Shown: positions 122-24,171, numbered from the stretch's first letter. The stretch: 43,573 nt of DNA from Bacteriovoracaceae bacterium (GCA_028287765.1 JAQBPA010000229.1:1-43573); one strand, 5' to 3'. Notes: generated from the sequence alone by a model not told the origin. Numbers and translations are program-made.

Positions 122-640
122 ATGGGAAAGAGACCTTCGATTAAAACGACCAAATCTACTTTTTTAAAGCAAAAGCCTGTGGCCTCTTCGAGTGAAAAAA
201 TTCCTGAGGAAACTATTCGTAAGCTTTCAGAGATCTTGAAGACTACCGATCTTGCTGAAATTGAAATTCGAATCGGTGAGATGACGGTTCGCGTTCGGGC
301 TCGAGAGGAAGTGGTGTCGCATTCTGTTCCTTCAGTAAATTTGGTAAGTGCGACGGCGACCATTGTTCCAAAGGTTCAAAAGGCGCCTGAGGCTGTCTCT
401 GATCTTCATATTGTTCGTTCTCCTTTTATTGGTACTTTTTATCGATCTCCCTCGCCTTCTAGTCCTTCGTTTGTTGAACTCGGGCAAGCGGTTGCTAAGG
501 GACAATCTCTTTGTATTGTTGAAGCGATGAAGCTTATGAACGAAATTGAATCGGATTCGGCGGGGATTATTGAGAAGATTTTTGTGGAGAACGGAAGTCC
601 TGTTGAATTTAATTCTGCACTTTTCGGGATCCGAAAGTAA
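122..640 (+). CDS. accB: Acetyl-CoA carboxylase biotin carboxyl carrier protein
   Basis: EAMKLMNEI biotinylation motif; RSPFIGTFYRSPSP; directly upstream of biotin carboxylase. Confidence 0.97.
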   Translation: MGKRPSIKTTKSTFLKQKPVASSSEKIPEETIRKLSEILKTTDLAEIEIRIGEMTVRVRAREEVVSHSVPSVNLVSATATIVPKVQKAPEAVSDLHIVRSPFIGTFYRSPSPSSPSFVELGQAVAKGQSLCIVEAMKLMNEIESDSAGIIEKIFVENGSPVEFNSALFGIRK

Positions 641-1998
641 TGGCTTTTAAAAAAGTCCTCATTGCTAATCGCGGAGAGATTGCTCTTCGCATTCAACGTG
701 CATGCCATGAGCTTGGACTCGCGACCGTATGCGTTTATTCGACGGCCGACGCTGAATCCTTACATGTAAAATTTGCCGATGAATCGGTTTGTATTGGTCC
801 GCCTTCTCCGCGCGAGAGCTATTTAAATATTCACGCTCTTCTTTCTGCTGCAGAAGTGACCGGAGCGGATGCTGTGCATCCGGGTTATGGATTTTTATCA
901 GAGAATGCTCAGTTTGCGCGAGCTTGCCAGGAAATGGGTCTGACCTTTATTGGACCTTCACCGGATGCTATCGAGCGAATGGGTCATAAGATTGTCGCCA
1001 AAGAAACAGTTCACTCTGCCGGAGTTCCGCTTTTTCCGAGTGTGAAACTTGTCGATTCGAAAGGAAAAATTCGCTCGGAAAGTGATTTAAAAAAGAAAGT
1101 AGAAGAGATTGGTTATCCCGTCTTGATTAAAGCTGCCATGGGGGGCGGTGGTCGAGGAATGAAAGTTGTTCGATCGGCGGAGGAACTTCTTCGGGCTCTG
1201 GATGTTGCTCGCTCTGAAAGTAAATCGGCTTTTGGAAGTGAAGAAGTTTATATCGAAAAATATTGTGAACAGCCTCGTCATATCGAATTCCAAATTTTAG
1301 CAGATCAATTTGGTCATATGGTTCATTTGGGAGAGCGAGACTGCTCTATTCAAAGACGTCATCAAAAACTTTTGGAAGAGACGCCGAGTCCTGCACTTAC
1401 ACCGCTGCTTCGAGAAAAAATGGCGGCTGCTTCTCTGGCTGCCGCGAAAGCTGTCAATTATTTTAGCGTCGGGACGATTGAATTCATTTTAGATTCGGAC
1501 CAAAAATTTTATTTTCTGGAGATGAATACGCGAATTCAAGTCGAACATCCTGTCACCGAGATGGTGACGGGAGTGGATCTTGTGCGTGAGCAAATTCTTG
1601 TCGCGCTTGGTGAAAAACTCACTCTCAAACAACCGGACATTAAATTTTCAGGTCATTCGATCGAATGTCGCATTACGGCTGAAGATCCTAAAACCTTTGC
1701 TCCAAGTCCTGGCCGGGTGACGCACTTTCATCCGCCGATGGGAAAAGGCGTTCGGCTGGAATCTTCTTTTTATTCGGATTACTTGGTTTCGCCTTATTAC
1801 GACTCCCTTCTCTGTAAGCTCATCGTTCATGATGAAACGAGACCGCTAGCCATTGCTAGGATGCGAGAAGCATTGAAAGAATTCATTATTAGGGGTGTCA
1901 AAACTACGATACCTCTTCATCTAGAAATCTTGGATTCTCCGGATTTCATCTCCGGAAAATATGATACGCGGTATTTAAGTCTGCCCAGGGCCGCCTAG
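640..1998 (+). CDS. accC: Acetyl-CoA carboxylase, biotin carboxylase subunit
   Basis: KVLIANRGEIA, HPGYGFLSEN, GGGGRGM, ERDCSIQRRHQK, EMNTRIQVEHPVTE; TAATG coupling to accB. Confidence 0.98.
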   Translation: MAFKKVLIANRGEIALRIQRACHELGLATVCVYSTADAESLHVKFADESVCIGPPSPRESYLNIHALLSAAEVTGADAVHPGYGFLSENAQFARACQEMGLTFIGPSPDAIERMGHKIVAKETVHSAGVPLFPSVKLVDSKGKIRSESDLKKKVEEIGYPVLIKAAMGGGGRGMKVVRSAEELLRALDVARSESKSAFGSEEVYIEKYCEQPRHIEFQILADQFGHMVHLGERDCSIQRRHQKLLEETPSPALTPLLREKMAAASLAAAKAVNYFSVGTIEFILDSDQKFYFLEMNTRIQVEHPVTEMVTGVDLVREQILVALGEKLTLKQPDIKFSGHSIECRITAEDPKTFAPSPGRVTHFHPPMGKGVRLESSFYSDYLVSPYYDSLLCKLIVHDETRPLAIARMREALKEFIIRGVKTTIPLHLEILDSPDFISGKYDTRYLSLPRAA

Positions 1999-6867: not shown

Positions 6868-7614
6868 CTAACGGGCGAGATTATTGATATTAAATTTACT
6901 TCCCGAAAAATCTTTTTCTTTCGGATTAACATAGGTGATGTCGCTTATGTTCTCGGCAAATTTTGAATCGGTAATTGTCATTCGACTAATAAATTGGATT
7001 TTTTGCCCGCTAGATAAAATGGAATTTCCATATTTAAAAGTCGCCACTTTAAACGGTTCGCCTTCGAGACTTAAAAATTCTGCCTTCATCGCAAGCTTCG
7101 ATTTTTCAGAAATATAATATTTGATTCGGTCGTAAGTAACTTTTTTGTCTTTGGCTTTTAAATCCAAAATAAAAACAGGCTCACCATCGATTTTTGTTTT
7201 ACCTACAATGCTTCCTTCATAATCACGTGAGTAATGGGTGGAGGCGATATCGCCATTTGCAGCCTGACCCGAAAGCCGTTGTCGCGCCGAAATGGAGATG
7301 GGCTTTCGAAGTCCCGGTTTATAAAACCACATATCGCGATCGTTAAAGAGATAGACCTCTCCTTTATTTCGCGCTGGAGAAAGTGCTTCGATGAGGGCGT
7401 CATCACCCTTTGCCTCGATACCAAACTCCCTCTCGGTCGTGCTTCCGGCCTCGATTGTTTTGAGTTGAACTTTCCATTCAAGACCCTTCAAAAGCCCGCC
7501 TCGTGCTCGGTCAGACGCCTTCAAAAGTTCTGTCGGAGAAGTTTCTGCGGCAGTTATGATTCCAGTCCATAAAAACGCGATAGCCGAAAACGCTTTAAAA
7601 TTATTCATTTTCAT
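6868..7614 (-). CDS. Outer-membrane lipoprotein-sorting (LolA-like) periplasmic protein
   Basis: Signal peptide; MWFYKPGLRKPISISARQRLSGQAANGDIA and LDLKAKDKKVTYDRIKY motifs typical of LolA-like proteins. Confidence 0.85.
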   Translation of the reverse strand: MKMNNFKAFSAIAFLWTGIITAAETSPTELLKASDRARGGLLKGLEWKVQLKTIEAGSTTEREFGIEAKGDDALIEALSPARNKGEVYLFNDRDMWFYKPGLRKPISISARQRLSGQAANGDIASTHYSRDYEGSIVGKTKIDGEPVFILDLKAKDKKVTYDRIKYYISEKSKLAMKAEFLSLEGEPFKVATFKYGNSILSSGQKIQFISRMTITDSKFAENISDITYVNPKEKDFSGSKFNINNLAR

Positions 7615-7679
7615 TCATTTCTCCGTTTTTAAAATGATTCTTCCAGCGATATGTTATTTAACACCATTGCCCTCAAATC

Positions 7680-7688
7680 TGCTATGTT
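7680..7688 (+). promoter_or_regulatory. Possible extended -10 promoter for the PPTase operon
   Basis: TG-c-TATGTT about 11 nt upstream of ATG 7700, in the divergent intergenic region. Confidence 0.25.
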
Positions 7689-7699
7689 CGGCGCACCCT

Positions 7700-8461
7700 A
7701 TGAGCGCGGTAGCCTCTTTTATTCCTTCTCACTCTTCTTGGCTCGATCGCCTTTCGCAAGAAAAAGTTCATATTTATAGAAGCAAATTTGACGATCTCTC
7801 CGAAGGACTTCTCGAGTACCTTTCACCCTCCGAAAAAATGAGAGCCGTATCAAGTCGGTCCTTTTCGAAAACTCAAAGAGAATTTGGACTGGGTCGCGGA
7901 TGGTTAAGACATCTTCTTTCCCGATATTCAAATATTCCTGCTGCGGAGCTGCGTTTGATTTTTGGAGAGAAGGGAAAGCCAGAGCTCTTTTGTAATCCTG
8001 CGCATCTTTCGTTTAATATTTCACACTCCGGCGACGAAATTTGCGCCATCATCTCTCAAAATTTAGAGGTGGGAATTGATCTTGAAGAGCTAAGCGAAAA
8101 AAAATGGAGCCCAAATCTGGCCGCCGAAATTTTATCGGAGAACGAGATCAGAGAATTCAACACATTGAATGAAAAAGAAAAAATGCGATCCTTTTTTTAT
8201 ATCTGGACGCAAAAGGAAGCTTATTTGAAAGCCATCGGAAGGGGTCTCTCGATTGCGCCGAACACGATCGAGGTGACAGTGAATCCACTTCGTTTGCCGC
8301 AACTCATCAAGAGCCTGTCGGCAGATGAGCCGAAAGAGTGGCAAATGTTTTCTCTCTTCGATTTGAAAGAATTTTACTGCATTGCAGCCGTTCGAACCTC
8401 TTCGAATCAGTTAGAGGCACCGAAAGTTATTCATTGGAAGGCAGACTCATGTCTAGATTAA
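7700..8461 (+). CDS. Sfp-type 4'-phosphopantetheinyl transferase
   Basis: GKP, FNISHS, VGIDLE and WTQKEAYLKAIGRGL motifs; start moved to ATG 7700 because the 7556 start overlaps the divergent gene. Confidence 0.93.
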   Translation: MSAVASFIPSHSSWLDRLSQEKVHIYRSKFDDLSEGLLEYLSPSEKMRAVSSRSFSKTQREFGLGRGWLRHLLSRYSNIPAAELRLIFGEKGKPELFCNPAHLSFNISHSGDEICAIISQNLEVGIDLEELSEKKWSPNLAAEILSENEIREFNTLNEKEKMRSFFYIWTQKEAYLKAIGRGLSIAPNTIEVTVNPLRLPQLIKSLSADEPKEWQMFSLFDLKEFYCIAAVRTSSNQLEAPKVIHWKADSCLD

Positions 8462-10086
8462 AAAAAATTTCCAAAGGAGATTTTTTTGAATTTTTGGAAA
8501 ATCTCTCGAAGACTTATAAAAATAATATTGCACTTTCATGTCATCAGTCGAGCGAATGGAAGCTGATTTCTTTTCGTGACCTTCATGAGCAAGTTCTAAA
8601 GACAGCTTCTCGCCTTCAGATGGCAGGCCTTAAAAAGGGCGAGCGTGTCGTTCTGCTCGGAGAGTCTTCGATCGAATGGGTGATTCATTTTTTTGCCGTG
8701 CTTTTGTCTGGCGGCATTGCGATTCCACTTGATATCAAACTTGCGGATACCGAGATGGCGAATATTTTATCGCATTCTGAACCGAGTCTTCTTTTGGCAT
8801 CACTTAAATTTCGTGAGCTCGCAAGAAATTTGCGAACTGTCCCGAAACGTGCGAGCAAAGTTTTAATTTTAAATGACGGACTTTCTGATTCTTTGATTCC
8901 TAGTCTCCCATTTAATCGAGTGAAAGTTTCTCCAGAAGATCCGGTCGTCATTTGTTATACGTCCGGCACCTCGGGATCTCCCAAGGGCGTGATGGTTCCA
9001 CTTCGCACTTTTTTATTTGAGGCGGATGCCATGGCTAATATCAGTCGCGACATTAGCACAAAGGATGTGATGCTTTCGGTTCTTCCACTCAATCATTTGT
9101 TTGGGCTTGGCAGCGGACTTCTTTTTTCGCTCCGCTGTGGAATGGAATTTTGTATGGCCCATGATCTAAGCCCGGATGCGATTGTTTTTTGTTTTAAATC
9201 TCGTCGCGTCACTCATTTTCAAGTCGTTCCGCTTTTTTTGAAACTGATGATGCGTGAAATCCAGCGAAAGTCGCATGAGCGAATGGGTGAACTTAAATTC
9301 CGCTCCATTCTGAAATCAGCGAAGCTTCTAAGATTTAATACGTTAAAAAAAATGGCATTCAAAAAAATTCATGAACCCTTTGGTGGAACGCTGAAACGTT
9401 TTGTGTGCGGCGGCTCGGAACTTGATCCTCAGATTTTTGATTTTTTCTCGGCCATCGGCACGCCTATTTATAACGGCTATGGTCTTACGGAGACCGGCCC
9501 TGTTATTGCGACGAATGCTCCCAAACGGAATCGCCGAGGCTCTGTTGGCCTGCCGCTTCCCGGCGTCAAAGTGAAAATAGCAAACGGCGAAATTATAACC
9601 AAGGGTCCTCATCTCATGCTCGGCTATTACAGAAATTCGGAGCTCAGTCGTGAATCCATGGATGACAAGGGATGGTTTTATACGGGAGATATGGGCTATC
9701 TCGACAAAAAGGGATTTTTATATCTGAACGGTCGTAAAAAAAATCTTGTCGTTTTAAGTAACGGAAAAAAAATTCATCCCGAAGAAGTGGAATCTGCACT
9801 CTCGAAAACTTCCTCCATTAAAGAAATTTGTGTGGTGGGTCTTCCCTCGTCTTCTGAACTCGGGGAAAAAATTGTAGCCATCGTCATTCCTGCTGAGAAT
9901 TCTTCCGAATCGGACGTACGAGCAGAGATCGCGAGACTTTCAAATGACCTTGCGACCTATAAACGTCCGAGTGAGATTATTATTCGTCGCGAATCTTTTC
10001 CAGTTACAGCATCCATGAAAATTAAACGGCATCTGGTCAAAGATGAACTTCTTCAAACAAGTCTTGGAGCACGTAAAGGTGCATAA
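8449..10086 (+). CDS. AMP-binding long-chain acyl-CoA/acyl-ACP ligase
   Basis: YTSGTSGSPKG, GYGLTE, TGDMG, GRKKNLVV, SMKIKR; likely start ATG 8449, overlapping the PPTase end. Confidence 0.92.
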   Translation: MSRLKKISKGDFFEFLENLSKTYKNNIALSCHQSSEWKLISFRDLHEQVLKTASRLQMAGLKKGERVVLLGESSIEWVIHFFAVLLSGGIAIPLDIKLADTEMANILSHSEPSLLLASLKFRELARNLRTVPKRASKVLILNDGLSDSLIPSLPFNRVKVSPEDPVVICYTSGTSGSPKGVMVPLRTFLFEADAMANISRDISTKDVMLSVLPLNHLFGLGSGLLFSLRCGMEFCMAHDLSPDAIVFCFKSRRVTHFQVVPLFLKLMMREIQRKSHERMGELKFRSILKSAKLLRFNTLKKMAFKKIHEPFGGTLKRFVCGGSELDPQIFDFFSAIGTPIYNGYGLTETGPVIATNAPKRNRRGSVGLPLPGVKVKIANGEIITKGPHLMLGYYRNSELSRESMDDKGWFYTGDMGYLDKKGFLYLNGRKKNLVVLSNGKKIHPEEVESALSKTSSIKEICVVGLPSSSELGEKIVAIVIPAENSSESDVRAEIARLSNDLATYKRPSEIIIRRESFPVTASMKIKRHLVKDELLQTSLGARKGA

Positions 10087-11137
10087 ACTGAAATTTTACT
10101 TCTTCCTTTTTTTGATCGTCATTGGCGTTTATACCGTGAACCTTTTAGTAGATGCGGGAGTCTTCACGAAGCTTCATCCCCATTTTAAAGGACAATGTGT
10201 GTCCTATAATGCGATCGCAGGAGCTGAGGATATGGAGTTCTCGAAGAGCCGTCAGACACTCTTTATTTCGAGCGATTTTCGCCCCGAGAGCGAAGGGGAT
10301 TCGACTCCGAACGGTGAGCTTTATATTTGGACGGCTAATGAAATTTCTCGAGGTGACTCGCCGCCCCATAAATCATCCTGGGGAGCGCCATTTTCTTTTC
10401 ATCCTCATGGACTTGGCCTTTTGGATGGTCCGGAGGGACCACGCCTTTGGGTTGTGAATCATCGAACCGCCGAAGAGACGAGCATTGAAGTCTTTGATTT
10501 TATCAAAGGTCAACTCGTCCATGTGACAAGCATTTTTGATCCGACGCTCACCAATGCAAATGATATCGCACCGGTCGACCGCGAAACTTTTTATGTGACC
10601 CTTGATCATCGCGGGAAGTCTAATTTCCAGAAAAAAATCGAAGACTATTTAAGATTAGGTCTCGGGAAGGTCATTTTCTTCGATGGAAAAAAATTTGAAG
10701 CGAAGGCTTCTGGAATACAGTTTGCGAACGGAATTCAACTCACAAAAGACAGGCTTAAACTTTTTGTGGCGTCGATGACGTCCAAATTTATTTTGATTTA
10801 TCGACGTCATCCCATGACGAATGATCTGGAGTTCATCGAGAAGAAAGAGCTCCCAAGTGCTCCCGATAATTTGACATTGGATGATACAGAAGAGAATTTA
10901 TGGATCGGAGCTCATCCTAAATTACTCGCTCTTGCAAAACAAATGCACCACCATCAAATCCATGCGCCAGCGCAAGTGCTTCGAATGAATCTCAAAAATA
11001 ACTCTCTCATTGAAGAAATATTTCTCGATGACGGAAAGCAAATTTCTTCAACGAGTGTTGCCGTGAAGATCGGAAAAAATCTCATTCTTGGAAGTATTTT
11101 TGGCGACAATATTCTTAAATGCCAGCCGGTGGAATAA
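10043..11137 (+). CDS. Paraoxonase/arylesterase (PON)-family six-bladed beta-propeller lactonase with N-terminal membrane anchor
   Basis: GAEDM, FHPHG, VVNH, ANDI, FANGI, PDNL, WIGAHP follow the PON1 Ca2+/catalytic residue order; alternative GTG start at 10079. Confidence 0.85.
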   Translation: MNFFKQVLEHVKVHKLKFYFFLFLIVIGVYTVNLLVDAGVFTKLHPHFKGQCVSYNAIAGAEDMEFSKSRQTLFISSDFRPESEGDSTPNGELYIWTANEISRGDSPPHKSSWGAPFSFHPHGLGLLDGPEGPRLWVVNHRTAEETSIEVFDFIKGQLVHVTSIFDPTLTNANDIAPVDRETFYVTLDHRGKSNFQKKIEDYLRLGLGKVIFFDGKKFEAKASGIQFANGIQLTKDRLKLFVASMTSKFILIYRRHPMTNDLEFIEKKELPSAPDNLTLDDTEENLWIGAHPKLLALAKQMHHHQIHAPAQVLRMNLKNNSLIEEIFLDDGKQISSTSVAVKIGKNLILGSIFGDNILKCQPVE

Positions 11138-14100
11138 TCGATTTTAAGGCGTCTTCCAGAATTTTGGAATAACGATTGGCCCAGACAATTATTTCTTCTG
11201 CTTTAAGTTCATGTGTTTGAAAATCAATTTCGAGATGATAAAAATATTCGAGATCTGTGAGATTGAAACTCAAATCAAATTCAGCAGCCGCAATCGGGTA
11301 TGCGTACATAAAAAGACTGACATCATTAAAGTCGGGAAGTTCAGCAAGAGGCTCCACATTAAAGCTGACGTTAAAAAGTGGAGCATCCAATTTTTCTTTT
11401 AGCTTCTCATAAGGGTGAGACATATTTTGATAGGCCTCAATGAGTTCTGCCTTTACGCGTTTGGTTTGATCCACGAAGGATTCATTTTCTTTTGTCGTAA
11501 ATTGAATCGGAACTAAATTCGCACAATTTCCAATCATTCCTTCTGCGCCGTCTAAATCACGATTGGCTGCAGGAACTCCAATCGTAAGAGTTGAAGATTC
11601 ACTCATTTCTTTTAAGAGCGAGTAGAACGAACTCAAAAGACACATCATCGGTGTCATCTTCCATTCTTTGGCAGCAGCCTTTAACTTTTTATAAATGGCG
11701 TTATCAATCGGAAAGGTGAGTCGCTCAGCCTTGAGAGAAGGAGTTTTCTCATTTTGTGTTTTTGTATTCTTCCACTTTAGAAATTCTGGAGGCTTTTTAA
11801 ATTTTTCTTCCCAATGTTTTTTTGCATTTTCTAGACGACTCACCGGCCCAAAATGATTGGGCGTTTCTAAGAATTTAAAGAATTGCATTTGAGGAACAAA
11901 ATCGAAAGGCTCACTCATATCGATCGCGCGGTAGGCCTTGGCGAGATCTTCGATAAAGCGAGAAATCGCCCAGCCGTCGAGAGCGATATGATGACAAACC
12001 ATCGAGAAGACAGCCGTCTCTTCGGCCACATCATAGAGTCGAAATCGCACAGGCGGTTCTTTCTCGAGAAGAAAAGGCCGCTTACCTTCTTCGAGAAGTC
12101 GAGCGTCAAGCTCCTGCCAGGGAGCTTCGAACGAAGTTAAATCCTCAGAGTCAAAGGGAAGAGATGTCGTTGGATCAAGCCACTGAAGTCCTTTTGTTAA
12201 ATCCACTCGCAGACGAAAGACATCCGAGAGGCTGAGCATTTTAAAAAGTGCTTTTTCGAGAACCGTCTTCTTAAGAGGACCCTTCATTTTTACTGAAAGA
12301 CAAATATGACTCGCCGCTTCGCCGTCAGCGCTTAGAAGGCTCAAGTCTTGAAATCGTTTTTGAGCCGATAGAAATCCTTTCGTATCCGGAGTGTGCTCTT
12401 TCGCCAGATCTTTCGGTTTTAAAAATCCAACATCGATGAGTTCATGCGTGACGTCTTTGACCGTTTGTATAAAAAAGCGAATGTCTTCAGCCGTATGCGC
12501 AGTGGAGAGAAACAGATTTCGACCTTCCCAAATATAAACCCCGCGCAGATTCATATTGTAAAAGAAGAGATCTAAATTGGCAGCCGCCTTAAATCGAAAG
12601 AGCGAGCCAAAATTATTTACTGTAATTTCAAGATTAACGGACTGAAAAAATTCTGTGAGTTCAGTCGCGAGCCCGTGTGTGCGGCGATTGAGATTTTCGA
12701 GAATCTCTTTTCCTTCTGTACTGACTTTTTCAAGAACAGCATTGGCCGAGGCCATTGCGAGGGGATGCTTACTAAAGGTTCCTGCAAAGAACGTCATTTC
12801 AGATTGAGGATAGGTCGTATCTCCGAAGTTCCAGTCACCTCCGTCAATCGAATCCATAAATTTAGAGCTTCCGCCGACGGCCCCGATGGGAAGACCTCCA
12901 CCCAAAATTTTTCCGTAGGACGCAATATCGGCTTTGACTCCGAAATGTTCTTGAGCTCCGCCCGGACAAATACGAAAGCCCGTAATCACTTCGTCAAAAA
13001 TAAGTGCGGTTCCCGATTTTTCCGTAATCGCGCGGACTTCTTTTAAGAAAGCTTGTGGTTGATGCTCGGGGAACCGACTCTGAACTGGTTCTACCAGTAC
13101 AGCTGCGAGAAGATGCGCATTTTGACGAATAATTTCGAGAGACTCTGGAGCTCCGTAGTCTAAAACCAAAACGTCTCGAACAAGACCCTGCGTTACGCCA
13201 GAAGCAACAGGCGTGGTCACTCCGTCAGCAGAGGTTCTCGCGAGTACACCGTCGAAGTGTCCGTGATAGGAACCATCAAAGAGAACAATCTTTTCTCTCT
13301 TCGTCGCTGCTCGCGCAAGGCGAATTGCCGTCATCACGGCCTCAGTACCCGAATTGCAAAATGCAATTCGATCCATGCCCACGAGTTTGGCCATCTTTTC
13401 GGCAACCTGTCCTGCAAGGTAGGACTGCGGTCCGAGACACATTCCGAGTTCGGATTGCTTCATGATCGCCGTATGAATGAAATCGGGATTATGACCGAAG
13501 AGATTTACTCCAAATCCCATCGTAAAATCGACGTAGGAATTTCCGTCGAAATCTTCGAAGCGGCTTCCTTTCGCTTTGTAACAAATGATCGGATAGACGA
13601 CTTCTTTTAAATTGGGACGAAATCCCGCACTCGTTCGATTGTCAGCGAGGAGCTTTCTAAACTTTTGCGTATGCTCTTTTGTTTTAGGCGTACGCGCGTT
13701 GAATTTTTTGATGAGGTCCTCGAGGTAGCGAGCTTTTTGTTCACTCTCTAATTCGCTTCGCTCACGGTCCGCAAAGTTTTTAAAATTCCCGAGAACGCCG
13801 CGTTTTTCGGTCGGCGCGTGTATTCGGATATCGAGTATTCCACCACTGTCGAGAGCAGCTGCTTGGAATTTTTGCGCAGATTCTCGACTGATATGATCGG
13901 CAATTTTTCGAAGGGTCGAGAGATCCTGAAAAATATCGGAGATCGAAATGCTCACATGATATTTATCTTTGATCGCTTGAATGGCATTCAAAAGAAGGAG
14001 GGAGTCTGCACCTAATTCGATGAGCGCTTCATCCACATTTAAATTTTCACTACTAATCTGAAGAAGTTTTCCAACAATTGAAACCAGCTCCGTGAGAATT

Positions 14101-17054
14101 TCTTCGTGAGAATATACTTGATGGAGCTCGCTCGGCGGCAGTTTAGCCGTGATGCTTCGAACGGGATTACTCCAATATTTTGTTTTTTGAAAGACGGTAA
14201 ACGGTAAAGCATCGGACTGCGTTTTATTTTTAGAAGGAGAGGGTTTCCAAAAACCCCAAACCCCAAGTTCAGAAAGTCCCTGATAAAAACTTTCAACCGC
14301 ATCTTGATTACGGGAGAGCAATTTAAATGAACGCGTTTTCTCAAGATTTTCTTTTGAAATGCAGGCCTGCGCCATCGTGATAAGAGTCGGATGCGCTCCG
14401 ATTTCTAAAAAGCCGTTACAGCCAAGAGCTTCCAAGGTTTGCATGCCTTTCAAAAATTGTGTGGGTTCGCGGAGATGCTTCGCCCAGTAGGCAGTCGAAT
14501 AAACATCGGAAGTTGCAATCACGTCTCCCGTAAGACTTGAAACAAGGGGAATCGAAGTATTTGCATACTGAATTTTTTGAATCGCCTTTTCAAAAGGCTG
14601 GAGTACGGAATCCATTTGTCTCGAATGAAAGGCTCGATCCGTTCGGAGTTCTGAGACGCGGATATTTTTATTTTTGAGATCATCTTTTAATTTCTGAATT
14701 TCAGAGACATTTCCGGAAAGAATAAAAAGTTCCGGGCCATTGACGGCGGCGATTTCAAGTGAGAGTTTTTCTTTGTTGAGAGTCGCCTCAATCACGTCTC
14801 GCTTTTCGAAAACAGCGAGCATGGCACCCGCAGAAGTTTCCTGCATGAGTTTTCCGCGCATCGTGACCATGAGGACCGCTTCTTCAAGCTTGATTGCCCC
14901 GCTCACGGTAGCGGCAATACATTCTCCAAGAGAGTGACCGAAGACAGCCGCTGGTACGATTCCAAAATCTTCTTTTAAGAGCTGCGCGAGCGAATAACCG
15001 ACAGAAAAAATGGCAGCCTGTCCGTAATCTGTTTGCGAAAGTGCCTTCGCCTCACTCTCTCCACTTTGACTTACGATCGTATAAAGATCGTTCGGATAAT
15101 ATCGATCAAAAAGTTCGCAGCAATCTTCAAAAGCTTTTCGAAAGGATGGAAACTGCGAATATAGTCCCATCGCCATTCCTGAATATTGCGATCCTTGGCC
15201 TGTAAATAAAAAAGCGAGTTTACGCTGCGGCTTTGTTATCGCTCGACCGTGAGCCCATCCATTTGATGGCTCCCTTAATAAAAAGGATCCGATTCGCTCT
15301 GAAAGTTCTATTCGAGTTTTTCCGTGAACCATCATTCTCTCTGGCAGATCGAGTCGTTGTTCGATGGAAGCGGCCGCCAATTTTAAAAGTTCCGAATCTT
15401 TGATTTCAAGAAGAGATTTTTTTAGAGTCTCAGCACTTTTCCTTAAGCTCTCTTCGTCAGTTGCGGAAAAGGCGAGTAGATTGGAAGGCGTTTTGAGAGT
15501 TTTATCTTGAGCCGTCGAATTTTGATATTCCTCTAAAATTAAATGCGCATTCGAGCCGCCAAAGCCAAAGGAGCTAATGCCAGCCATGCGACTTTTTCCG
15601 TCCCTTTTATTCCAAGCGCTGCCTTCACTTTCAACTTTTAAATTTGTACAGCCCTCTCCAATTTTGGAATTGAGAGATTTGAAATGAAGAGTTTTAGGAA
15701 TCCATTCATGCTTTGCTGCGAGAACGGCCTTGATCACTCCAGCGACTCCCGCTGCCGCTTCGAGATGACCAATATTTGATTTCACGGATCCTACTGCACA
15801 GGGAAGATTTTTTGGCCGATCGCCAAGAACTCGGCTGAGAGATAAATATTCGATTGGATCGCCAAGCGCCGTTCCTGTGCCATGAGCTTCGATATAGGTA
15901 ATTTCTTCTGCAGCCACCTTCGCATCCGCCAAGGCGTGCCGAATCACTCTCTCTTGTGCGACTCCGTTAGGAGCAGTAAGTCCGCTGCTCCTACCGTCTT
16001 GGTTGATCGCAGAACCGCGAATCACAGCGTGAATTCGGTCGCCGTCACGAACAGCATTCGAAAGTTTTTTCAGTACCAAAACTCCTGCGCCCTCGCTTCT
16101 GACGTAACCATTCGCACCTTCTGAAAAACTTTTGCAGCGACCTTCGGGAGATAAAAATCCTCCCTGCGAAAAGGCAGCCGAGATCACGGGGTCGAGAAGA
16201 ATATTTACTCCACCCGCAAGCGCGAGTTCTGAATCTCCATTTTTAAGACTTCGGCAAGCGAGATGAATGGCGGTAAGTGCGGATGAGCAAGCGGTGTCGA
16301 CACTCACACTCGGGCCGGTAAAATTAAAAAAGTATGAAAGTCGATTGGGAGAAATACTGTGGGCGTTTCCGGTGACGTCGTAAACATTAACGGCATCGGA
16401 ATTTTTAACGCCGAGAATCAGATAGTCACTATTACTAATCCCGACAAAAACTCCCGTTCGGCTTTGATCGAGTTGACTGGGAGAATACCCCGCATCTTCA
16501 ATCGCTTCCCAACTGCACTGAAGAAGAAGCCTCTGCTGCGGATCCATTTTTTCTGCTTCGATTTTTGAAAGTCGAAAAGCTTCGGCATCAAATTCTTCAA
16601 TGCCCTGAAGAAATCCACCCCATTTTGGAGATAGATCGGAGTTCCAGCGGTCTGCGGGAATTTCACTAATCGCATCCACGCCGTTTTTAAGAAGATTCCA
16701 AAATTCATCGACTGAGCGCGCTCCTGGAAATCGGCAGCTCATCCCAATGATGGCGATAGGTTCCGAACTTACTTCTGCCCTCGCAAATGTTTCGGCCGCC
16801 TCGTTTGGATTCGCGATATGCTCGGCGAGCTGACGAATCGTCGGGTAGTCAAAAATAATCGTCGGCGCCAGTTTGAGAGTAAGCTTTGAATTCAGATTGG
16901 AAACAATATGAACCGCTTGAAGAGATTCAATTCCCATCTCTGCAAAAGGCTGATCAATATCCATCTCTGTCGTCGGACGACCAGTGACCACCGAAATCTG
17001 AGTGATGATTTCAGAAATAAAGGTGGGAACCGAATCCGACAGAGTTCTGCTCAC
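11115..17054 (-). CDS. Hybrid PKS/NRPS-like megasynthase: ACP-KS-AT-ACP-class III aminotransferase-condensation
   Basis: ACP GIESL; KS DTACSS/HGTGT/GHLE; AT GQGSQ/GHSLG/RAFHS; ACP GADSL; AMT DFTMGFG/NSGTEA/FDEVITGFR/GKILGGG; C HHIALDG. Likely start GTG 17054, just after the upstream stop (ORF track start 17114). Confidence 0.95.
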   Translation of the reverse strand: MSRTLSDSVPTFISEIITQISVVTGRPTTEMDIDQPFAEMGIESLQAVHIVSNLNSKLTLKLAPTIIFDYPTIRQLAEHIANPNEAAETFARAEVSSEPIAIIGMSCRFPGARSVDEFWNLLKNGVDAISEIPADRWNSDLSPKWGGFLQGIEEFDAEAFRLSKIEAEKMDPQQRLLLQCSWEAIEDAGYSPSQLDQSRTGVFVGISNSDYLILGVKNSDAVNVYDVTGNAHSISPNRLSYFFNFTGPSVSVDTACSSALTAIHLACRSLKNGDSELALAGGVNILLDPVISAAFSQGGFLSPEGRCKSFSEGANGYVRSEGAGVLVLKKLSNAVRDGDRIHAVIRGSAINQDGRSSGLTAPNGVAQERVIRHALADAKVAAEEITYIEAHGTGTALGDPIEYLSLSRVLGDRPKNLPCAVGSVKSNIGHLEAAAGVAGVIKAVLAAKHEWIPKTLHFKSLNSKIGEGCTNLKVESEGSAWNKRDGKSRMAGISSFGFGGSNAHLILEEYQNSTAQDKTLKTPSNLLAFSATDEESLRKSAETLKKSLLEIKDSELLKLAAASIEQRLDLPERMMVHGKTRIELSERIGSFLLREPSNGWAHGRAITKPQRKLAFLFTGQGSQYSGMAMGLYSQFPSFRKAFEDCCELFDRYYPNDLYTIVSQSGESEAKALSQTDYGQAAIFSVGYSLAQLLKEDFGIVPAAVFGHSLGECIAATVSGAIKLEEAVLMVTMRGKLMQETSAGAMLAVFEKRDVIEATLNKEKLSLEIAAVNGPELFILSGNVSEIQKLKDDLKNKNIRVSELRTDRAFHSRQMDSVLQPFEKAIQKIQYANTSIPLVSSLTGDVIATSDVYSTAYWAKHLREPTQFLKGMQTLEALGCNGFLEIGAHPTLITMAQACISKENLEKTRSFKLLSRNQDAVESFYQGLSELGVWGFWKPSPSKNKTQSDALPFTVFQKTKYWSNPVRSITAKLPPSELHQVYSHEEILTELVSIVGKLLQISSENLNVDEALIELGADSLLLLNAIQAIKDKYHVSISISDIFQDLSTLRKIADHISRESAQKFQAAALDSGGILDIRIHAPTEKRGVLGNFKNFADRERSELESEQKARYLEDLIKKFNARTPKTKEHTQKFRKLLADNRTSAGFRPNLKEVVYPIICYKAKGSRFEDFDGNSYVDFTMGFGVNLFGHNPDFIHTAIMKQSELGMCLGPQSYLAGQVAEKMAKLVGMDRIAFCNSGTEAVMTAIRLARAATKREKIVLFDGSYHGHFDGVLARTSADGVTTPVASGVTQGLVRDVLVLDYGAPESLEIIRQNAHLLAAVLVEPVQSRFPEHQPQAFLKEVRAITEKSGTALIFDEVITGFRICPGGAQEHFGVKADIASYGKILGGGLPIGAVGGSSKFMDSIDGGDWNFGDTTYPQSEMTFFAGTFSKHPLAMASANAVLEKVSTEGKEILENLNRRTHGLATELTEFFQSVNLEITVNNFGSLFRFKAAANLDLFFYNMNLRGVYIWEGRNLFLSTAHTAEDIRFFIQTVKDVTHELIDVGFLKPKDLAKEHTPDTKGFLSAQKRFQDLSLLSADGEAASHICLSVKMKGPLKKTVLEKALFKMLSLSDVFRLRVDLTKGLQWLDPTTSLPFDSEDLTSFEAPWQELDARLLEEGKRPFLLEKEPPVRFRLYDVAEETAVFSMVCHHIALDGWAISRFIEDLAKAYRAIDMSEPFDFVPQMQFFKFLETPNHFGPVSRLENAKKHWEEKFKKPPEFLKWKNTKTQNEKTPSLKAERLTFPIDNAIYKKLKAAAKEWKMTPMMCLLSSFYSLLKEMSESSTLTIGVPAANRDLDGAEGMIGNCANLVPIQFTTKENESFVDQTKRVKAELIEAYQNMSHPYEKLKEKLDAPLFNVSFNVEPLAELPDFNDVSLFMYAYPIAAAEFDLSFNLTDLEYFYHLEIDFQTHELKAEEIIVWANRYSKILEDALKSIIPPAGI

Positions 17055-17061
17055 GATGGCC

Positions 17062-17913
17062 TTACTTCTTCTTAAGGGTTCGTGCGAGATGCATCGTGTT
17101 GTCGGCAAAATCATTCCAGAGATCGAGCCAAATCGTGACTCGCTTCTTCACTTCATCATATCTCTCCGGAACAATCGCTTGCCTAAAAATATACCAAGAA
17201 TCTTCGGAGTGATCGTCGTCAATCGACTCACCGTGCTCATCGTCTACGTGAATCGCGTGATAACCTTCAGAGGTATCGATATCGGTCGAAAGCGAAACAC
17301 TTTTTGCCCACGGCCCCGCGTAGAGAGTAAACACAGTTTCTGCACAGGCGAGTACGGCCGTCAAAAGAACGTAGTCATTATAATGATCCGTGAATGTTTT
17401 TCGTGCAGCTTTGGATGCAGGCGATGGTTTGTAATTTAAAATTTCTGAAGCGCTGGATCCTAAACTCTCAAGCGTTTTTACAAACTGAATATAGTGAGCA
17501 AGAAAAGGTGTCCCCCAGTAGTCGCCCGTCACTTCATCGTTTGGAAAAAAACCAAGCTCATCAAGAAGATTGAGTTGCAAAAGAAATCGTGACGTCACTT
17601 TTCCGGCTGGCCCGAGTCGTGGCTCAAGATCTGCCGACTGCGCCATCGCATGAATGAGGGAGTCGGTAAAAATTTGTGCAAAGCCGTGAGCAAATTCTAA
17701 GTGAATAGCTTTGGTGACTTCGGGGTTTAGTTTTTCGGTATTGAGAACTCCTTTAACCGGATGGCGAGACATTCGATGGGTCGCGATCAAAGCTTTGAGT
17801 TCATCGACATAGGCGACGTTTTTGGCCCAGAGATCGGGAGGAACAGATTGTTCAATTGCGGCACGACAGACTGCTCGAGGTTTGGATTTATCGAAACCAG
17901 TGGTTTTAGCCAT
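17062..17913 (-). CDS. Heme-oxygenase-like diiron oxidase (HDO; iron-containing redox enzyme, CADD/UndA/BesC superfamily)
   Basis: Helical protein with ligand order E (NLLDELG), H (AHY), E (ACAE), H (YHAIHV), D-x2-H (DDDH); AAGGAG RBS. Confidence 0.75.
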   Translation of the reverse strand: MAKTTGFDKSKPRAVCRAAIEQSVPPDLWAKNVAYVDELKALIATHRMSRHPVKGVLNTEKLNPEVTKAIHLEFAHGFAQIFTDSLIHAMAQSADLEPRLGPAGKVTSRFLLQLNLLDELGFFPNDEVTGDYWGTPFLAHYIQFVKTLESLGSSASEILNYKPSPASKAARKTFTDHYNDYVLLTAVLACAETVFTLYAGPWAKSVSLSTDIDTSEGYHAIHVDDEHGESIDDDHSEDSWYIFRQAIVPERYDEVKKRVTIWLDLWNDFADNTMHLARTLKKK

Positions 17914-17979: not shown

Positions 17980-18735
17980 TTAGACAAAGAAATTCTGCGT
18001 GAGAGACAAAAAAACAGATTTGGCATGTTCGAAGTGATAAAAATGGCCGCCGGGAAAAATTTGGACATCGTGAAGAATCGTGCCAAAGTCGGCCCATTGT
18101 TTGAGTTCTTCGGGTTTCACAGAAGAATCATCTGCTCCGCCAAACACAAGAAGCGGAACAGAGAGAGGTTTTATATCCTCCGTTTCATAAGCTTCCATGA
18201 GAGCGATATCGGCTCTCAAAATTTTTAAAAAATAAGTCCGTGCCGCAGAATCTCTTAAAATTTCTGGCGCAACGGGTGCAAATTGGCTGAGCTTTTCGAT
18301 GAGTTCAGTCTCTGGAAGATGTGCAATTTTTTCTCGCTCTCGAAGATTTTTTTGCGAAGGTGGACGAAAGGAAGAAAGCGCGAGGCCGCGAATTTTTTCT
18401 CGAAAAGGCGAGTGCAGCGCTCGATAGAGTTCAAAAGCGATGAGCGACCCCATGCTATGACCAAAAAAAACGGAGGGAGTATCTCCCTCGGATTCGAAGG
18501 CTGCTTTTAAATCTTCAATAAGACTTTTGAAATTCATCAAAAGTTTTTCACGATGACGAGCGCCGTGCCCCGGAAGTTCAACCACAATAAGTTCCACATT
18601 TTCGGGAGCTAAGTCTCGCCACTTTGAATAAGACAGGGAACTTCCACCGGCGTGCGGAAAAACAAACAATCTCATCTGAGCATGGGGGCGCGGTTTAAGT
18701 CGGTAGAACCAAGGAGACTTCATGGACGATAGCAT
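17980..18735 (-). CDS. Type II (editing) thioesterase, GrsT/RifR family
   Basis: FPHAGG, LPGHG, FGHSMG, FPGGHFY; start may be ATG 18723. Confidence 0.93.
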   Translation of the reverse strand: MLSSMKSPWFYRLKPRPHAQMRLFVFPHAGGSSLSYSKWRDLAPENVELIVVELPGHGARHREKLLMNFKSLIEDLKAAFESEGDTPSVFFGHSMGSLIAFELYRALHSPFREKIRGLALSSFRPPSQKNLREREKIAHLPETELIEKLSQFAPVAPEILRDSAARTYFLKILRADIALMEAYETEDIKPLSVPLLVFGGADDSSVKPEELKQWADFGTILHDVQIFPGGHFYHFEHAKSVFLSLTQNFFV

Positions 18736-18803: not shown

Positions 18804-19226
18804 ATGACGCATTATGGCGAGCTCAATATCACAACCGGCTGGATCTTTATTTCTCTCGGAATCACGACTGGCTCGATCATCGGGCTTTGGTCGTTTGATG
18901 GACCGTTTCCGACTCCTAAGGGACATACAAATTATACAGATCTTCCCCGCCGCTTAAACCGTCTCGCCCATATCGCTTGTTTTATGTTGCCGCTCATTTC
19001 TATCGTTTACGGCCAATACCTTGATCAGGCGCTGCTGACAGACGCTCAAAAATTGATCGGCGCTTACAGTATGGTCACTTGTATGATTGGTGTTCCGCTC
19101 TTTCTTTTTCTTGCTTCGTTTTATTTGCCTTTCAAATATTTGGAAGTGATCCCGGTAACTGCTGGTTGCGTCGCGCTCTATTTGATGTCGTGGGCACATT
19201 TAAAGATTTTATGTTCATTCAACTGA
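18804..19226 (+). CDS. Small integral membrane protein (about 4 TM) with RRLNRLAH motif
   Basis: AAGGGAG RBS; four hydrophobic segments; overlaps the ABC ATPase start. Confidence 0.75.
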   Translation: MTHYGELNITTGWIFISLGITTGSIIGLWSFDGPFPTPKGHTNYTDLPRRLNRLAHIACFMLPLISIVYGQYLDQALLTDAQKLIGAYSMVTCMIGVPLFLFLASFYLPFKYLEVIPVTAGCVALYLMSWAHLKILCSFN

Positions 19227-19891
19227 AAGAAGTTCGAAAGATTTACGCTCTCGGCGATACCAAAGTGAATGCGCTGAACGGAATTGATCTCACACTCGGT
19301 CGTGGAGAATTTACAGCGCTCGTTGGAACGTCAGGTTCTGGAAAGACCACCCTTCTCAATATGATCGGTTGTATCGATCGACCCACTTCAGGCGATGTCA
19401 TCATTGATGAGGTAAACGTCGTTAAATTAAATGAGGTTGAGCTCAGTGATTTTAGAAATAAAAAACTTGGATTTATTTTTCAGACTTTTAATCTTCTTCC
19501 GGTTTTAAATATTTTCGAAAATATAGAACTTCCACTTCTCATTCAGCGAAATCTTTCGGCTTCAGAGCGAAAAGATCTCGTGATGCAGGCGATTGAGGAT
19601 GTCGAGCTTACAAAATATATTCATCATATCCCGGACCGCCTAAGTGGTGGGCAGCGGCAGAGAGTCGCCATTGCGCGCGCACTTGTCACGAACCCAAGTC
19701 TTATTCTCGCTGACGAGCCCACGGCCAATTTGGATTCCGAGACTGCACATAAAATTTTAGATTTGATGCAATCTCTCAATGAAAAGAGAAAAGTCACTTT
19801 TCTCTTTTCGACTCACGATGAAAAGCTGATGAGCCGAGTGAAGCGAATGATAAGAATTGTAGACGGACATTTCGCTTCGGATCACGCGTGA
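19211..19891 (+). CDS. ABC transporter ATP-binding protein, LolD/MacB family
   Basis: [42 protein letters not shown]; start ATG 19211 ([10 protein letters not shown]). Confidence 0.95.
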
Positions 19892-22635: not shown

Positions 22636-24171
22636 ATGGGCGATCAAAAAATTTCAAAGGAATTACTTGCTGCCGCGGACCTACTTGAACGGGTAGCGCT
22701 TAATCGCGATTTGCTTTCTGAACTTCCGCTCGAGGATCGCACGCGGCTTTTGAAGGCAGCGGGCGATATTTATTCGCCCGATTTAACGGATCGTCGTCGG
22801 ATGTCTCGCCTTAAAAAAAAGAATCGAAAGCACGAAAAAATAAATCGCGATCAGAATGTTCTTTCAAAAACCGGTATTCGCGTTCTTCGCAGGAAACCCG
22901 TTTTTACGACGCCCAATTTGCCACCTCCTCCAAGCTTTGAAATTCGGGAGGTGAATGACGACGCAGAAAGTTTAAAAGTGGGTGAAGCACAAAATTGTTA
23001 TATTTGTAAAAAAGATTTCTCAAACATCCATCACTTCTACGATCAACTGTGTTCAACTTGTGCAGAATTTAATTTTAAAAAACGGACAGAGCTTGCCGAT
23101 CTGCACGGACGCGTCGCTCTTTTAACTGGCGGGCGAGTGAAGATCGGCTATCAAGCGGGCATCAAACTTCTTCGAGCTGGCGCAGAGCTGATCGTGACGA
23201 CCAGATTTCCGCGAGACTCGGCTGCGCGATATGCAGAAGAGCCGGACTTCGAAGAGTGGGGACATCGCTTAGAAATCTTTGGTCTTGATCTTCGTCACAC
23301 GCCGAGTGTCGAAGCCTTTTGTTGTCATCTCATGAAAACGCGCACACGTTTAGATTTCATCATTAATAATGCGTGCCAAACTGTTCGGCGTCCGCCGGAT
23401 TTTTATCAACATATGATGGCGAATGAAAATGGTGCGCTAAACGACCGGCCGGAGAAAATTAGAAATCTGCTTGGCGCATACGAAGGCCTTCGTGGATACA
23501 ATCTCCTTCCAGAAGGCGAAGCGAAACCAAAAGTATTGGAGCATAAAATTTCAGAAATTGCAGGGCTCACGCACGCCGCTGCACTCTCGCAAATTCCTCT
23601 ACTTCCGGAAGAACTCGCTGCTCAAAAAGATTTATTTCCTGAAGGCCGCCTCGATCAGGATTTGCAGCAAATTGATTTGCGAGAAAGTAATTCATGGCGC
23701 CTTCGAATGTCAGAAGTTCCAGCGGTCGAGCTTCTCGAAGTTCATCTTGTAAATGCGGTGGCACCCTTTATTTTGAACGCACGGCTCAAATCGCTGATGC
23801 TCAGATCGCCAGAGCGCGACAAACATATTGTAAATGTGTCTGCGGTCGAGGGGCAATTCTATAGAAGATTTAAAACTACACGTCATCCCCATACGAATAT
23901 GGCAAAAGCTTCACTCAATATGATGACCAGAACTTCTGCTGCCGATTATCATGCCGACGGAATTCATATGAACGCGGTCGATACGGGCTGGGTGACAGAC
24001 GAAGATCCGGTGCAGCTCGCAGAAAAAAAGATTCTCGAACATCGTTTTCATCCGCCGCTCGACATTGTCGACGGCGCAGCTCGAATCGTTAATCCGATCA
24101 TCGCAGGCTTTAATAGCGGCGAACATATCTGGGGAAAATTTTTAAAGGACTATGTCCCGACGCATTGGTAA
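22636..24171 (+). CDS. Atypical SDR-family oxidoreductase with N-terminal Cys4 zinc-finger-like motif
   Basis: LTGGRVKIG Rossmann motif, INNA, NVSAVEG, HPHTNMAK at the YxxxK position; CYIC…CSTC. Confidence 0.85.
   Translation: MGDQKISKELLAAADLLERVALNRDLLSELPLEDRTRLLKAAGDIYSPDLTDRRRMSRLKKKNRKHEKINRDQNVLSKTGIRVLRRKPVFTTPNLPPPPSFEIREVNDDAESLKVGEAQNCYICKKDFSNIHHFYDQLCSTCAEFNFKKRTELADLHGRVALLTGGRVKIGYQAGIKLLRAGAELIVTTRFPRDSAARYAEEPDFEEWGHRLEIFGLDLRHTPSVEAFCCHLMKTRTRLDFIINNACQTVRRPPDFYQHMMANENGALNDRPEKIRNLLGAYEGLRGYNLLPEGEAKPKVLEHKISEIAGLTHAAALSQIPLLPEELAAQKDLFPEGRLDQDLQQIDLRESNSWRLRMSEVPAVELLEVHLVNAVAPFILNARLKSLMLRSPERDKHIVNVSAVEGQFYRRFKTTRHPHTNMAKASLNMMTRTSAADYHADGIHMNAVDTGWVTDEDPVQLAEKKILEHRFHPPLDIVDGAARIVNPIIAGFNSGEHIWGKFLKDYVPTHW

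Follow-up and report, generated by a model that had tools for sequence, protein, structure and literature searches.

A terminal condensation domain and a predicted diiron oxidase as candidate partners in a one-module megasynthase of Bdellovibrionota

In the myxofacycline (iso) assembly line a polyketide synthase (PKS) is primed by a fatty acyl-AMP ligase. The passages of Popoff et al. 2021 (PMC9298251) that deal with the iso genes describe Iso2 as such a ligase combined with an acyl-CoA dehydrogenase, Iso5 as a PKS module, Iso7 as an acyl carrier protein (ACP) and Iso9 as a reducing PKS with a thioesterase (TE). Iso6 is described there as an ACP-aminotransferase-condensation (C) protein that lacks an adenylation (A) domain; its C domain is placed near the heterocyclization (Cy) domains and is proposed to cyclize to an isoxazole the oxime that Iso4, in the same proposal, generates by oxidation of the new amine (PMC9298251). 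Here we describe a locus with an A-less aminotransferase-C arrangement in a 43,573-nucleotide stretch of DNA from Bacteriovoracaceae bacterium (GCA_028287765.1 JAQBPA010000229.1:1-43573), the whole of which is referred to as the window. Its megasynthase, P0001, ends in a C domain. We tentatively suggest, at somewhat less than even odds, that this domain is functional and belongs to a separate clade of A-less, post-aminotransferase C domains that work with a heme-oxygenase-like diiron oxidase (HDO) encoded just upstream of the synthase.

The synthesis of iturin and mycosubtilin is initiated by MycA/ItuA, in which the order is ligase-ACP-ketosynthase (KS)-aminotransferase (AMT)-C-A-peptidyl carrier protein (PCP). 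With these proteins, and with the puwainaphycin-type hybrids in so far as the relevant text of PMC4219810 sets them out, the window shares a ligase, an ACP, a KS, an aminotransferase and a C domain placed to act on a beta-amino fatty acyl thioester, and the post-aminotransferase C domains of such hybrids form the nearest outside clade to that of the window. Unlike it, the iturin-type C domains continue into A-PCP and couple the chain to an amino acid, and they are only 24-26% identical to it; within the proteins compared, as distinct from their flanking genes, the iturin-type hybrids contain no HDO domain. The likeness to myxofacycline lies in the ligase-primed PKS, the aminotransferase followed by C, and the lack of an A domain. 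In the iso line, however, as its gene-by-gene text has it, the C domain stands in-line and is followed by an ACP and the reducing PKS-TE, and the ring closes on a ketone (PMC9298251). The window has instead one module, a terminal C domain of the HHxxxDG type and no desaturase-like gene in the Iso3 position, and it adds a paraoxonase-like protein and a 140-aa membrane protein. By analogy, the system would work most like the A-less AMT-C module of myxofacycline and is best called a terminal, one-module variant of it. Nocuolin A was considered as a related system and rejected, the gene set given in the cluster description of PMC5333925 being unrelated. Reviews in which the myxadazoles are named carry no detail on their enzymes. 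The literature covered, to which subscription titles such as the myxadazole paper did not belong, yielded no paper on a C-domain clade partnered by an HDO, on an HDO-linked synthase of this type, on this Bdellovibrionota locus or on an HDO in isoxazole biosynthesis.

The synthase and its domains, with the acyltransferase (AT) abbreviated, are arranged as follows:

11115..17114 (-), P0001 megasynthase reading frame, 1999 aa, ACP-KS-AT-ACP-aminotransferase-C by Pfam domains
16815..17012 (-), ACP1, the N-terminal loading carrier (PP-binding, residues 35-100; S64 invariant)
15681..16763 (-), ketosynthase domain (residues 118-478; PF00109 and PF02801)
14259..15212 (-), acyltransferase domain (residues 635-952; PF00698, E 3.3e-50)
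13890..14090 (-), ACP2, the second carrier (residues ~1001-1078; S1038 invariant)
12531..13595 (-), class III (GSA-type) aminotransferase domain (residues 1174-1528; PF00202, E 4.5e-54)
11142..12368 (-), terminal condensation domain (residues 1583-1991; PF00668, E 6.8e-53)
11973..11996 (-), CHHIALDG, the catalytic motif (HHxxxDG) of the C domain

The C domain scores 180.4 bits against PF00668 (cut-off 30.6) and covers positions 9-435 of the 456 in the profile, and the stop codon of P0001 falls 8 residues past its Pfam end. An earlier note on this DNA had read the protein as ending in an intact C domain with the CHHIALDG motif and as having neither ketoreductase (KR) nor dehydratase (DH), and both observations are borne out. 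It had also stated that no A, PCP, TE or reductase follows. This holds within the protein, where the Pfam scan detected no KR, DH, A, TE or reductase domain, and is qualified by a discrete type II TE gene nearby (17980-18735, minus strand). When nine full-length homologues were aligned, KS residues C276, H411 and H450 were invariant, as were H1708, H1709, D1713 and G1714 of the C domain (9/9), the conserved core regions of which are intact. The key residues S64, S1038 and K1402 of P0001 are also present in this alignment. Matches of the aminotransferase domain to hemL-like NCBIfam models fall below cut-off. Judged by its sequence, P0001 has every domain needed to extend a ligase-activated acyl chain once with malonate and then to transaminate the 3-oxo group, and its C domain is intact, conserved and lies at the true end of the protein.

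Is P0001 nonetheless the front end of a longer synthetase that has been cut short? Homologues continuing into A-PCP modules had been named in the earlier note as the sign of this, and they were looked for: the close homologues do not continue, and the post-aminotransferase C domains that do so belong to the separate, distant clade at 24-26% identity. Of 7781 candidates, 191 proteins matched when homologues were scored over the C-domain region only. The nine best, the query included, have the same six-domain architecture (1792-2175 aa, C-domain identity 44-72%), and beyond them the matches are generic nonribosomal peptide synthetase (NRPS) proteins at C-domain identities of 30% or less. All nine full-length homologues stop about 10 residues or fewer after the C domain, which is likewise terminal in loci L002, L126-L130, L134, L137 and L139; all 19 terminal-C homologues share this kind of end. 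No close fused form continuing into A-PCP was found, and all 69 matches in proteins of 3500-5000 aa are at most 29% identical. The homologue comparison thus indicates that P0001 is not a truncation.

The family is narrowly distributed. In the species-representative genome collection only four loci were closer than generic NRPS, and their labels read Bdellovibrionales, Bdellovibrio, Pseudobdellovibrionaceae or Oligoflexia. When 401 genomes of the phylum were sampled, a C-domain match at E <= 1e-20 was obtained in 37 and a family-type C domain (at least 184 bits) in eight of these (G000, G244, G349, G150, G335, G216, G369 and G113); none of the 13 genomes from the window's own family in this sample has one. 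The domain lies in a reading frame of about 2000 aa in seven of the eight and in a frame of 431 aa in the eighth, G335. At this last locus (L004:10-2795, equivalent to G335:C159 and labelled Oligoflexia) the C frame is separate, directly follows the aminotransferase frame and keeps HHxxxDG, so the C unit could exist as its own polypeptide. It may be a stand-alone protein there, a frameshift or an assembly error also being possible.

An acceptor module encoded elsewhere in the genome was likewise sought. On the whole contig there are just two carrier domains, each of them within P0001, and one AMP-binding gene (8509-9630, plus strand). A single C domain is encoded in the window's genome (2.84 Mb, 76% complete), together with three carrier domains, of which two are in the synthase and one stands alone, and six AMP-binding genes, none of which shares a frame with a carrier domain. 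Bdellovibrio sp. HCB337, with a complete genome of 4.3 Mb (L002, the same by coordinates as G001 and G244), encodes four carrier domains beside its one C domain. Two of these carriers are in the synthase, the third is the fatty acid synthase carrier acpP between fabG-like and fabF-like genes, and the fourth, which has no A domain, adjoins a phosphopantetheinyl transferase (PPTase), a rubrerythrin-like gene and a reductase. Neither an A domain paired with a carrier nor a second C domain is present in the window's genome or in the complete HCB337 genome. Since a complete related genome lacks an acceptor module, the C domain must act without an A-PCP partner.

The C domain was placed by phylogeny. 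In total 175 C-type domains of at least 340 aa were cut from the homologue proteins and the loci, labelled by their flanking domains and thinned at 65% identity to 126. In the FastTree analysis of these the terminal-C family forms a single clade with support 100. The neighbouring clade (support 89, short branch), which itself has support 99, comprises all four non-redundant post-aminotransferase C domains, two post-PKS and four N-terminal domains, and the C domain that comes second in P0020, after the post-aminotransferase C domain of that protein. For IQ-TREE the C domains reached through the oxidase were added and every third remaining row was kept, giving 71 rows. The 22 oxidase-linked C domains were separated from the 49 others by a branch with an SH-like approximate likelihood ratio (SH-aLRT) of 99 in a quick search, and with an ultrafast bootstrap (UFBoot) of 100 and SH-aLRT of 99 in a careful one, the bootstrap of which had not fully converged (correlation 0.979). 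The C domains reached through the HDO alone, from L137, L139 and L144-L146, join that of the window in this HDO-linked clade, within which three in-line, 'iso-like' domains group at 100/99 and the 19 terminal domains lie on one side of a branch with 87/79. Identities to the window's C domain range from about 25% to 73%. The xHxxxDG motif is nevertheless kept in 22/22 and HHxxxDG in 20/22, L128 having QH and L145 NH.

Familiar classes of C-type domain were also considered. A canonical elongation C domain of the MycA type, followed by A-PCP, is rejected by the missing acceptor and by the separate clade (UFBoot 100, SH-aLRT 99). A Cy domain is defined by DxxxxD in place of HHxxxDG, and an X domain by loss of the catalytic His motif. 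The presence of HHxxxDG rejects the former assignment and the retention of xHxxxDG in 22/22 the latter, in each case by motif, the trees being composed without curated Cy, X, starter or CT references.

The gene that precedes the synthase encodes the second protein of interest:

17062..17913 (-), P0122, 283-aa predicted HDO, overlapping the start of the synthase

P0122 matched no Pfam or NCBIfam model above cut-off. The best sub-threshold scores were 14.2 bits for PF03070 (TENA/PqqC, cut-off 22) and 16.7 bits for the BesC model NF042919 (cut-off 500), and a profile from the oxidase alignment (A3) gave nothing meaningful against PDB sequences (best E = 1). In the protein Atlas both features and structure put it among Haem_oxygenas_2 / TENA-PqqC clusters, with a structure match with a template modelling (TM) score of 0.92 to an 'iron-containing redox enzyme' cluster. 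The AlphaFold2 (AF2) model has a predicted local distance difference test score (pLDDT) of 94.3 with an alignment of 52 sequences and of 41.8 without one. In a Foldseek search of the PDB the best matches, at probability 1.00, were CADD/CT610, BesC, PolF, UndA and the N-oxygenase HrmI, with a TM by target of 0.82 for CADD and sequence identities of 11-19%. H46, E119, H140, E192 and D238 are kept in at least 90% of the 52 sequences, and H219, H222 and H235 are invariant in 8/8 sequences. By model and structure match, P0122 is a protein of the heme-oxygenase-like helical fold and a predicted HDO. The family is small, with 110 relatives at E <= 1e-3 in a profile search of 1.84 billion representatives. 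Compared with the known HDOs, the substrate of P0122 would be distinctive in being a beta-amino acyl chain tethered to a carrier.

The link between the HDO and the synthase is close to constant. Eight genome loci (L001, L002, L004 and L126-L130) were compared with the window, and a P0122 homologue is present in seven, each time immediately upstream of the synthase; the eighth, L004, begins inside the synthase. In the phylum sample, close HDOs (at least 399 bits) are confined to the same eight of the 401 genomes that carry a family-type C domain. When metagenome contigs were scanned with alignment A3, 18 loci were obtained, and among the 12 longest, which were examined, the oxidase gene is followed immediately and on the same strand by the synthase gene in ten. 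The exceptions are L145, where the oxidase comes just after the ACP-AMT-C gene, and L148, with only oxidase fragments. Genome G162 has a more distant HDO relative (184 bits; L149:6331-10220) in a PKS-less setting, beside a peroxiredoxin and 212- and 497-aa proteins of unknown kind. Only the close HDOs are therefore synthase-linked, and the wider family has other uses.

Several of the metagenome loci depart from the architecture of the window:

L137 and L139, AMP-ACP-KS-AT-ACP-AMT-C, with the ligase fused to the synthase and the C domain still terminal
L140:10516-17904, AMP-ACP-KS-AT-ACP-AMT-TE, with a TE at the position of the C domain
L144, KS-AT-ACP-AMT-C followed by ACP-KS-AT-DH, without an A domain
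L145, a KR-containing PKS, then ACP-AMT-C, then the HDO
L146, ligase-acyl-CoA dehydrogenase (ACAD)-ACP, a desaturase-like protein, the HDO, KS-AT, ACP-AMT-C, ACP, KS-AT-DH and onward, without an A domain

The gene order of L146 and L144 is that of iso2-iso9 as given in the text description of PMC9298251, except that L146 lacks the stand-alone A domain; the C domains fall in the clade of the window. The HDO, adjacent to the synthase in the window and its relatives, occupies by gene position the place of iso4 in L146, as that description orders the genes. Judged by the PKS modules that trail them, the in-line C domains of L144 and L146 cannot be release or amide-coupling catalysts. No C domain was found among the reading frames scanned at L140, where a gene of the membrane fatty-acid-desaturase family lies just upstream of the HDO. 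Stand-alone ACP-AMT-C proteins of about 1100 aa are found in records named Tistrella, Ramlibacter and Vitiosangium. In L137 the synthase is followed by a paraoxonase-like gene; an S-adenosylmethionine (SAM) methyltransferase gene lies upstream (7603-8412) and a gene of the sodium/bile-acid symporter family past the paraoxonase-like gene (18821-19461).

A physical contact between the two proteins is predicted. Modelled together from the C-domain alignment (A2) and the oxidase alignment (A3), they gave complex scores of 0.80, 0.80 and 0.82, and the best of three controls scored 0.00; the roughly calibrated mark for such scores is reached by 116/157 solved complexes and by 2/215 mismatched pairs. 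Contact agreement between the runs was at least 94% and the pLDDT of the partners at least 86. In the model the interface is formed by residues 35-38, 89-93, 122-126, 225-235, 357-364, 381-386 and 398-402 of the C domain (add 1574 for full-length numbering) and by residues 41-60, 165-169 and 257-279 of the oxidase. The complex model supports binding of the HDO to the C domain as a predicted contact.

The earlier note had treated the synthase as standing alone, and in this it does not hold up: the HDO, a TE, a ligase, P0121 and P0123 form a conserved set around it. These genes and the others beside them are:

17980..18735 (-), discrete type II thioesterase (PF00975, E 5.7e-31)
18804..19226 (+), P0121, 140-aa membrane protein without a family, four hydrophobic stretches by eye
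8338..10086 (+), acyl-AMP/CoA ligase for starter activation (PF00501)
10043..11137 (+), P0123, paraoxonase/arylesterase-like beta-propeller with an N-terminal hydrophobic anchor (PF01731, PF08450)
7556..8461 (+), Sfp-type PPTase (PF01648)
6868-7614 (-), LolA-like protein, conserved beside the core in L001, L126 and L134
5608-6864 (-), 418-aa protein of no recognized family, conserved beside the core in L001, L126 and L134
19079..22592 (+), ABC ATPase and two FtsX-type permeases, an accessory LolCDE-like exporter

The acyl ligase is present in all eight genome loci, and in L137, L139 and L140 it is joined to the synthase as an N-terminal fusion. The type II TE has a homologue in six of the eight. 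No accessory gene of the locus is better conserved than P0121, with homologues in seven at 57-71% identity; it matched no Pfam or NCBIfam model and only unnamed clusters in the protein Atlas. The desaturase-like protein in the same position of L146 was considered as its counterpart and rejected, the two proteins not being similar. P0123 is the gene that the earlier note had described as convergent, and it does indeed converge on the synthase, overlapping its 3' end by 23 nt, but it is a conserved partner with homologues in all eight genome loci. The homologue lies directly downstream of the synthase and in the same direction in L127, L128, L130 and L137, and about 4 kb off in L129. PPTase homologues are found in L002, L126 and L134, and LolCDE-like genes beside the core in L001, L126, L133 and L134. 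Might the LolA-like gene and that for the 418-aa protein be accessory export genes? Neither Pfam nor NCBIfam offered a family for the 418-aa neighbour, for a 275-aa neighbour or for a 165-aa reading frame. There is no further PKS gene in the window, which has one KS-bearing synthase at the locus.

What, then, might the C domain do? In the reading that we prefer, to which we give a probability of roughly 0.4, the HDO oxidizes the beta-amine on its carrier, and the C domain forms an N-O heterocycle from it, a step that here also releases the chain. The ligase would place a fatty acid on ACP1, the KS and AT would extend it with malonate to a 3-oxoacyl chain on ACP2, and the aminotransferase would convert this to 3-aminoacyl-ACP2. 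The HDO gene precedes that of the synthase, and the beta-amine is therefore probably oxidized and not simply acylated. Docked on the C domain as modelled, the HDO could turn the tethered amine into a hydroxylamine or an oxime, by analogy with the proposal for Iso4, and the catalytic His of the C domain could then promote intramolecular attack of the N-O oxygen on the carbonyl placed 1,3 to the nitrogen. After one extension the thioester would be the only such carbonyl, ring closure would itself be release, and the product would be a lipid of the 3-alkyl-isoxazolin-5-one type. Beta-oximino esters cyclize readily to isoxazol-5-ones. Were the KS to act twice, an isoxazole would be formed instead and be released by the discrete TE. 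Processing or export of the lipid may then fall to the paraoxonase-like P0123, to P0121 and to the Lol-like exporter, and the presence of these three suggests a membrane-associated or exported product.

The proposal of the earlier note that the C domain releases the product is partly upheld. The domain is terminal and has no acceptor, and the TE found in L140 at the position of the C domain fits a release position; the conserved discrete TE and the non-releasing in-line relatives speak against it. The note had listed four roles, namely N-acylation of the beta-amine, coupling to a free amine or alcohol, oligomerization of beta-amino acyl units and cyclization. Cyclization fits best, and N-acylation and coupling to a free nucleophile stay in contention; oligomerization drew no support from the analyses made.

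A number of observations weigh against oxidation by the HDO with ring closure by the C domain. The discrete TE is conserved in six of the eight genome loci, so release need not, in principle, involve the C domain at all. L140 keeps the HDO and yet works without a C domain, and the HDO is thus not strictly dependent on it. The nearest outside clade is the post-aminotransferase/PKS-interface group, the members of which are ordinary amide couplers. The C domain of Iso6 is described as near Cy domains, whereas those here are of the HHxxxDG type, and the equation of the HDO with Iso4 derives from gene position in L146 only. According to the titles of the matched PDB entries, the reactions of HDOs include desaturation/decarboxylation, C-C cleavage, azetidine formation and N-oxygenation, and the fold search with P0122 favours no N-oxygenase over the BesC, UndA or PolF types. 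The contact between HDO and C domain is a model, obtained with self-made, shallow alignments and judged against a rough calibration. Nor is its interface enriched for invariant positions, either on the C-domain side (8/31 against 88/425, p = 0.49) or on the HDO side (4/29 against 72/283), and conservation therefore gives the contact no independent support. The most complete version of the proposal, in which the orphan C domain docks the diiron oxidase in place of an acceptor module and the two jointly cyclo-release 3-alkyl-isoxazolin-5-one lipids for Lol-like export in predatory Bdellovibrionota, is put forward as a doubtful one.

Other readings of the terminal C domain have to be weighed against cyclization. 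VibH and the PapA5-type acyltransferases are C-fold enzymes that off-load acyl thioesters without an acceptor carrier; each stands alone as a protein, and its free acceptor is known. It is possible, if unlikely, that the C domain releases the chain in this manner by intermolecular condensation, the 3-aminoacyl chain on ACP2, oxidized or not, being donated to a free soluble or membrane nucleophile (an amine, an amino acid, a polyamine, an alcohol or water) and the HDO having a separate tailoring function. The intact HHxxxDG motif and C core regions would suit such a reaction, as would the ACP-bound donors used by the nearest outside clade, the genome without an acceptor carrier and the TE in the equivalent position of L140. 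VibH ('amide synthase', 1l5a) is itself among the PDB sequence matches, a weak one at E 6.9e-9, but the window, unlike VibH and PapA5, has no evident acceptor, and no dedicated nucleophile-making gene is conserved in the eight genome loci. The in-line members of the clade in L144 and L146, moreover, hand the chain to PKS modules and cannot off-load it, and coupling to a free nucleophile leaves unexplained both the strict linkage of the HDO and its predicted contact with the C domain.

A hydroxamate is usually made by N-hydroxylation followed by N-acylation, which counts in favour of another alternative. Here ACP1 would donate a second fatty acyl chain to the beta-amine, or N-hydroxy-amine, on ACP2, to give a two-tailed N-acyl (or hydroxamate) beta-amino lipid that is hydrolysed by the TE and passed to Lol-like export. 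The two carrier domains and the dedicated ligase are compatible with this, the conserved discrete TE could provide release, and the LolA-like and LolCDE-like genes in a subset of the loci suit a membrane lipid. ACP1, however, already has a role as the loading carrier, the in-line relatives lack a second acyl donor, and the C domain does not group with N-terminal, possibly starter, C domains save for the four inside the post-aminotransferase clade. We judge N-acylation improbable.

In glycopeptide synthetases a catalytically dead X domain recruits the P450 Oxy enzymes. Could the C domain of P0001 be chiefly a docking platform of this kind, its fold recruiting the trans-acting HDO to the carrier-bound intermediate while the HDO carries out the chemistry and the type II TE the release? 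The resemblance is clear as far as the model goes: in both cases a C fold at the end of an assembly line would bind a trans-acting oxygenase that works on a carrier-bound intermediate, and the C domain is matched (E 8.5e-14) by the X-domain chain 4tx2_B, 4tx3 also being among the PDB matches. The score of the complex model (0.80 against a best control of 0.00), the adjacent and overlapping HDO gene (7/7 genome loci in which it could be seen and 10/12 metagenome loci) and the conserved discrete TE fit as well. The partner, though, is a diiron HDO and not a P450, and the His-Asp-Gly motif is kept in 22/22 domains at identities down to 25%, unlike in a dead scaffold. L140, with its HDO and no C domain, and the interface without enrichment in invariant residues are further objections, and a mainly docking function is distinctly unlikely. 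That the C domain is an idle remnant of an iturin/mycosubtilin-type hybrid that lost its A-PCP and later modules is scarcely credible, for although two homologues are annotated at source as 'iturin family lipopeptide synthetase A' and distant KS-AT-ACP-AMT-C-A-PCP proteins exist, 19/19 terminal-C homologues end alike with conserved motifs, the clade is separate from the forms that continue into A-PCP, and no close fused relative was found.

Some other features of the window and its relatives were seen. In Bdellovibrio sp. HCB337 a gene of the tryptophan-halogenase family (PF04820, E 8.9e-128) and a 180-aa reading frame lie between the synthase and the paraoxonase-like gene (L002:11376-13550). 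This insertion is present in L002 alone among the relatives, and the halogenase suggests a halogenated version of the product there. Just after the exporter genes of the window is a 511-aa SDR-like protein (22636-24171, plus strand) that has an N-terminal extension of 150 aa and a Rossmann domain split by an insertion (Pfam 160-252 and 358-456); it is not conserved in the related loci. Genes for a biotin carboxyl carrier protein and a biotin carboxylase (accB/accC-like; 122-1998, plus strand) lie about 6 kb from the cluster. These are outside the conserved set and are probably a housekeeping supply of malonyl-CoA.

C domains are commonly taken for amide-bond formers in need of an acceptor module, and genome-mining tools therefore label P0001 an incomplete iturin-type synthetase. 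The comparison made here instead defines a clade of C domains in which an HDO, and not an A-PCP module, is the constant partner. Release of the chain by cyclization, if true, would be, for C domains, an off-loading chemistry of a new kind. The isoxazole-type, myxofacycline-like chemistry is little understood, and the locus would offer it in a minimal version of six genes; with one single-module synthase and one oxidase it would be far simpler than the nine-gene myxobacterial line for the study of amine oxidation and of the role of the C domain. It would also be among the few natural-product pathways of the Bdellovibrionota, with a dedicated lipid-export set, and its product may matter for predation.

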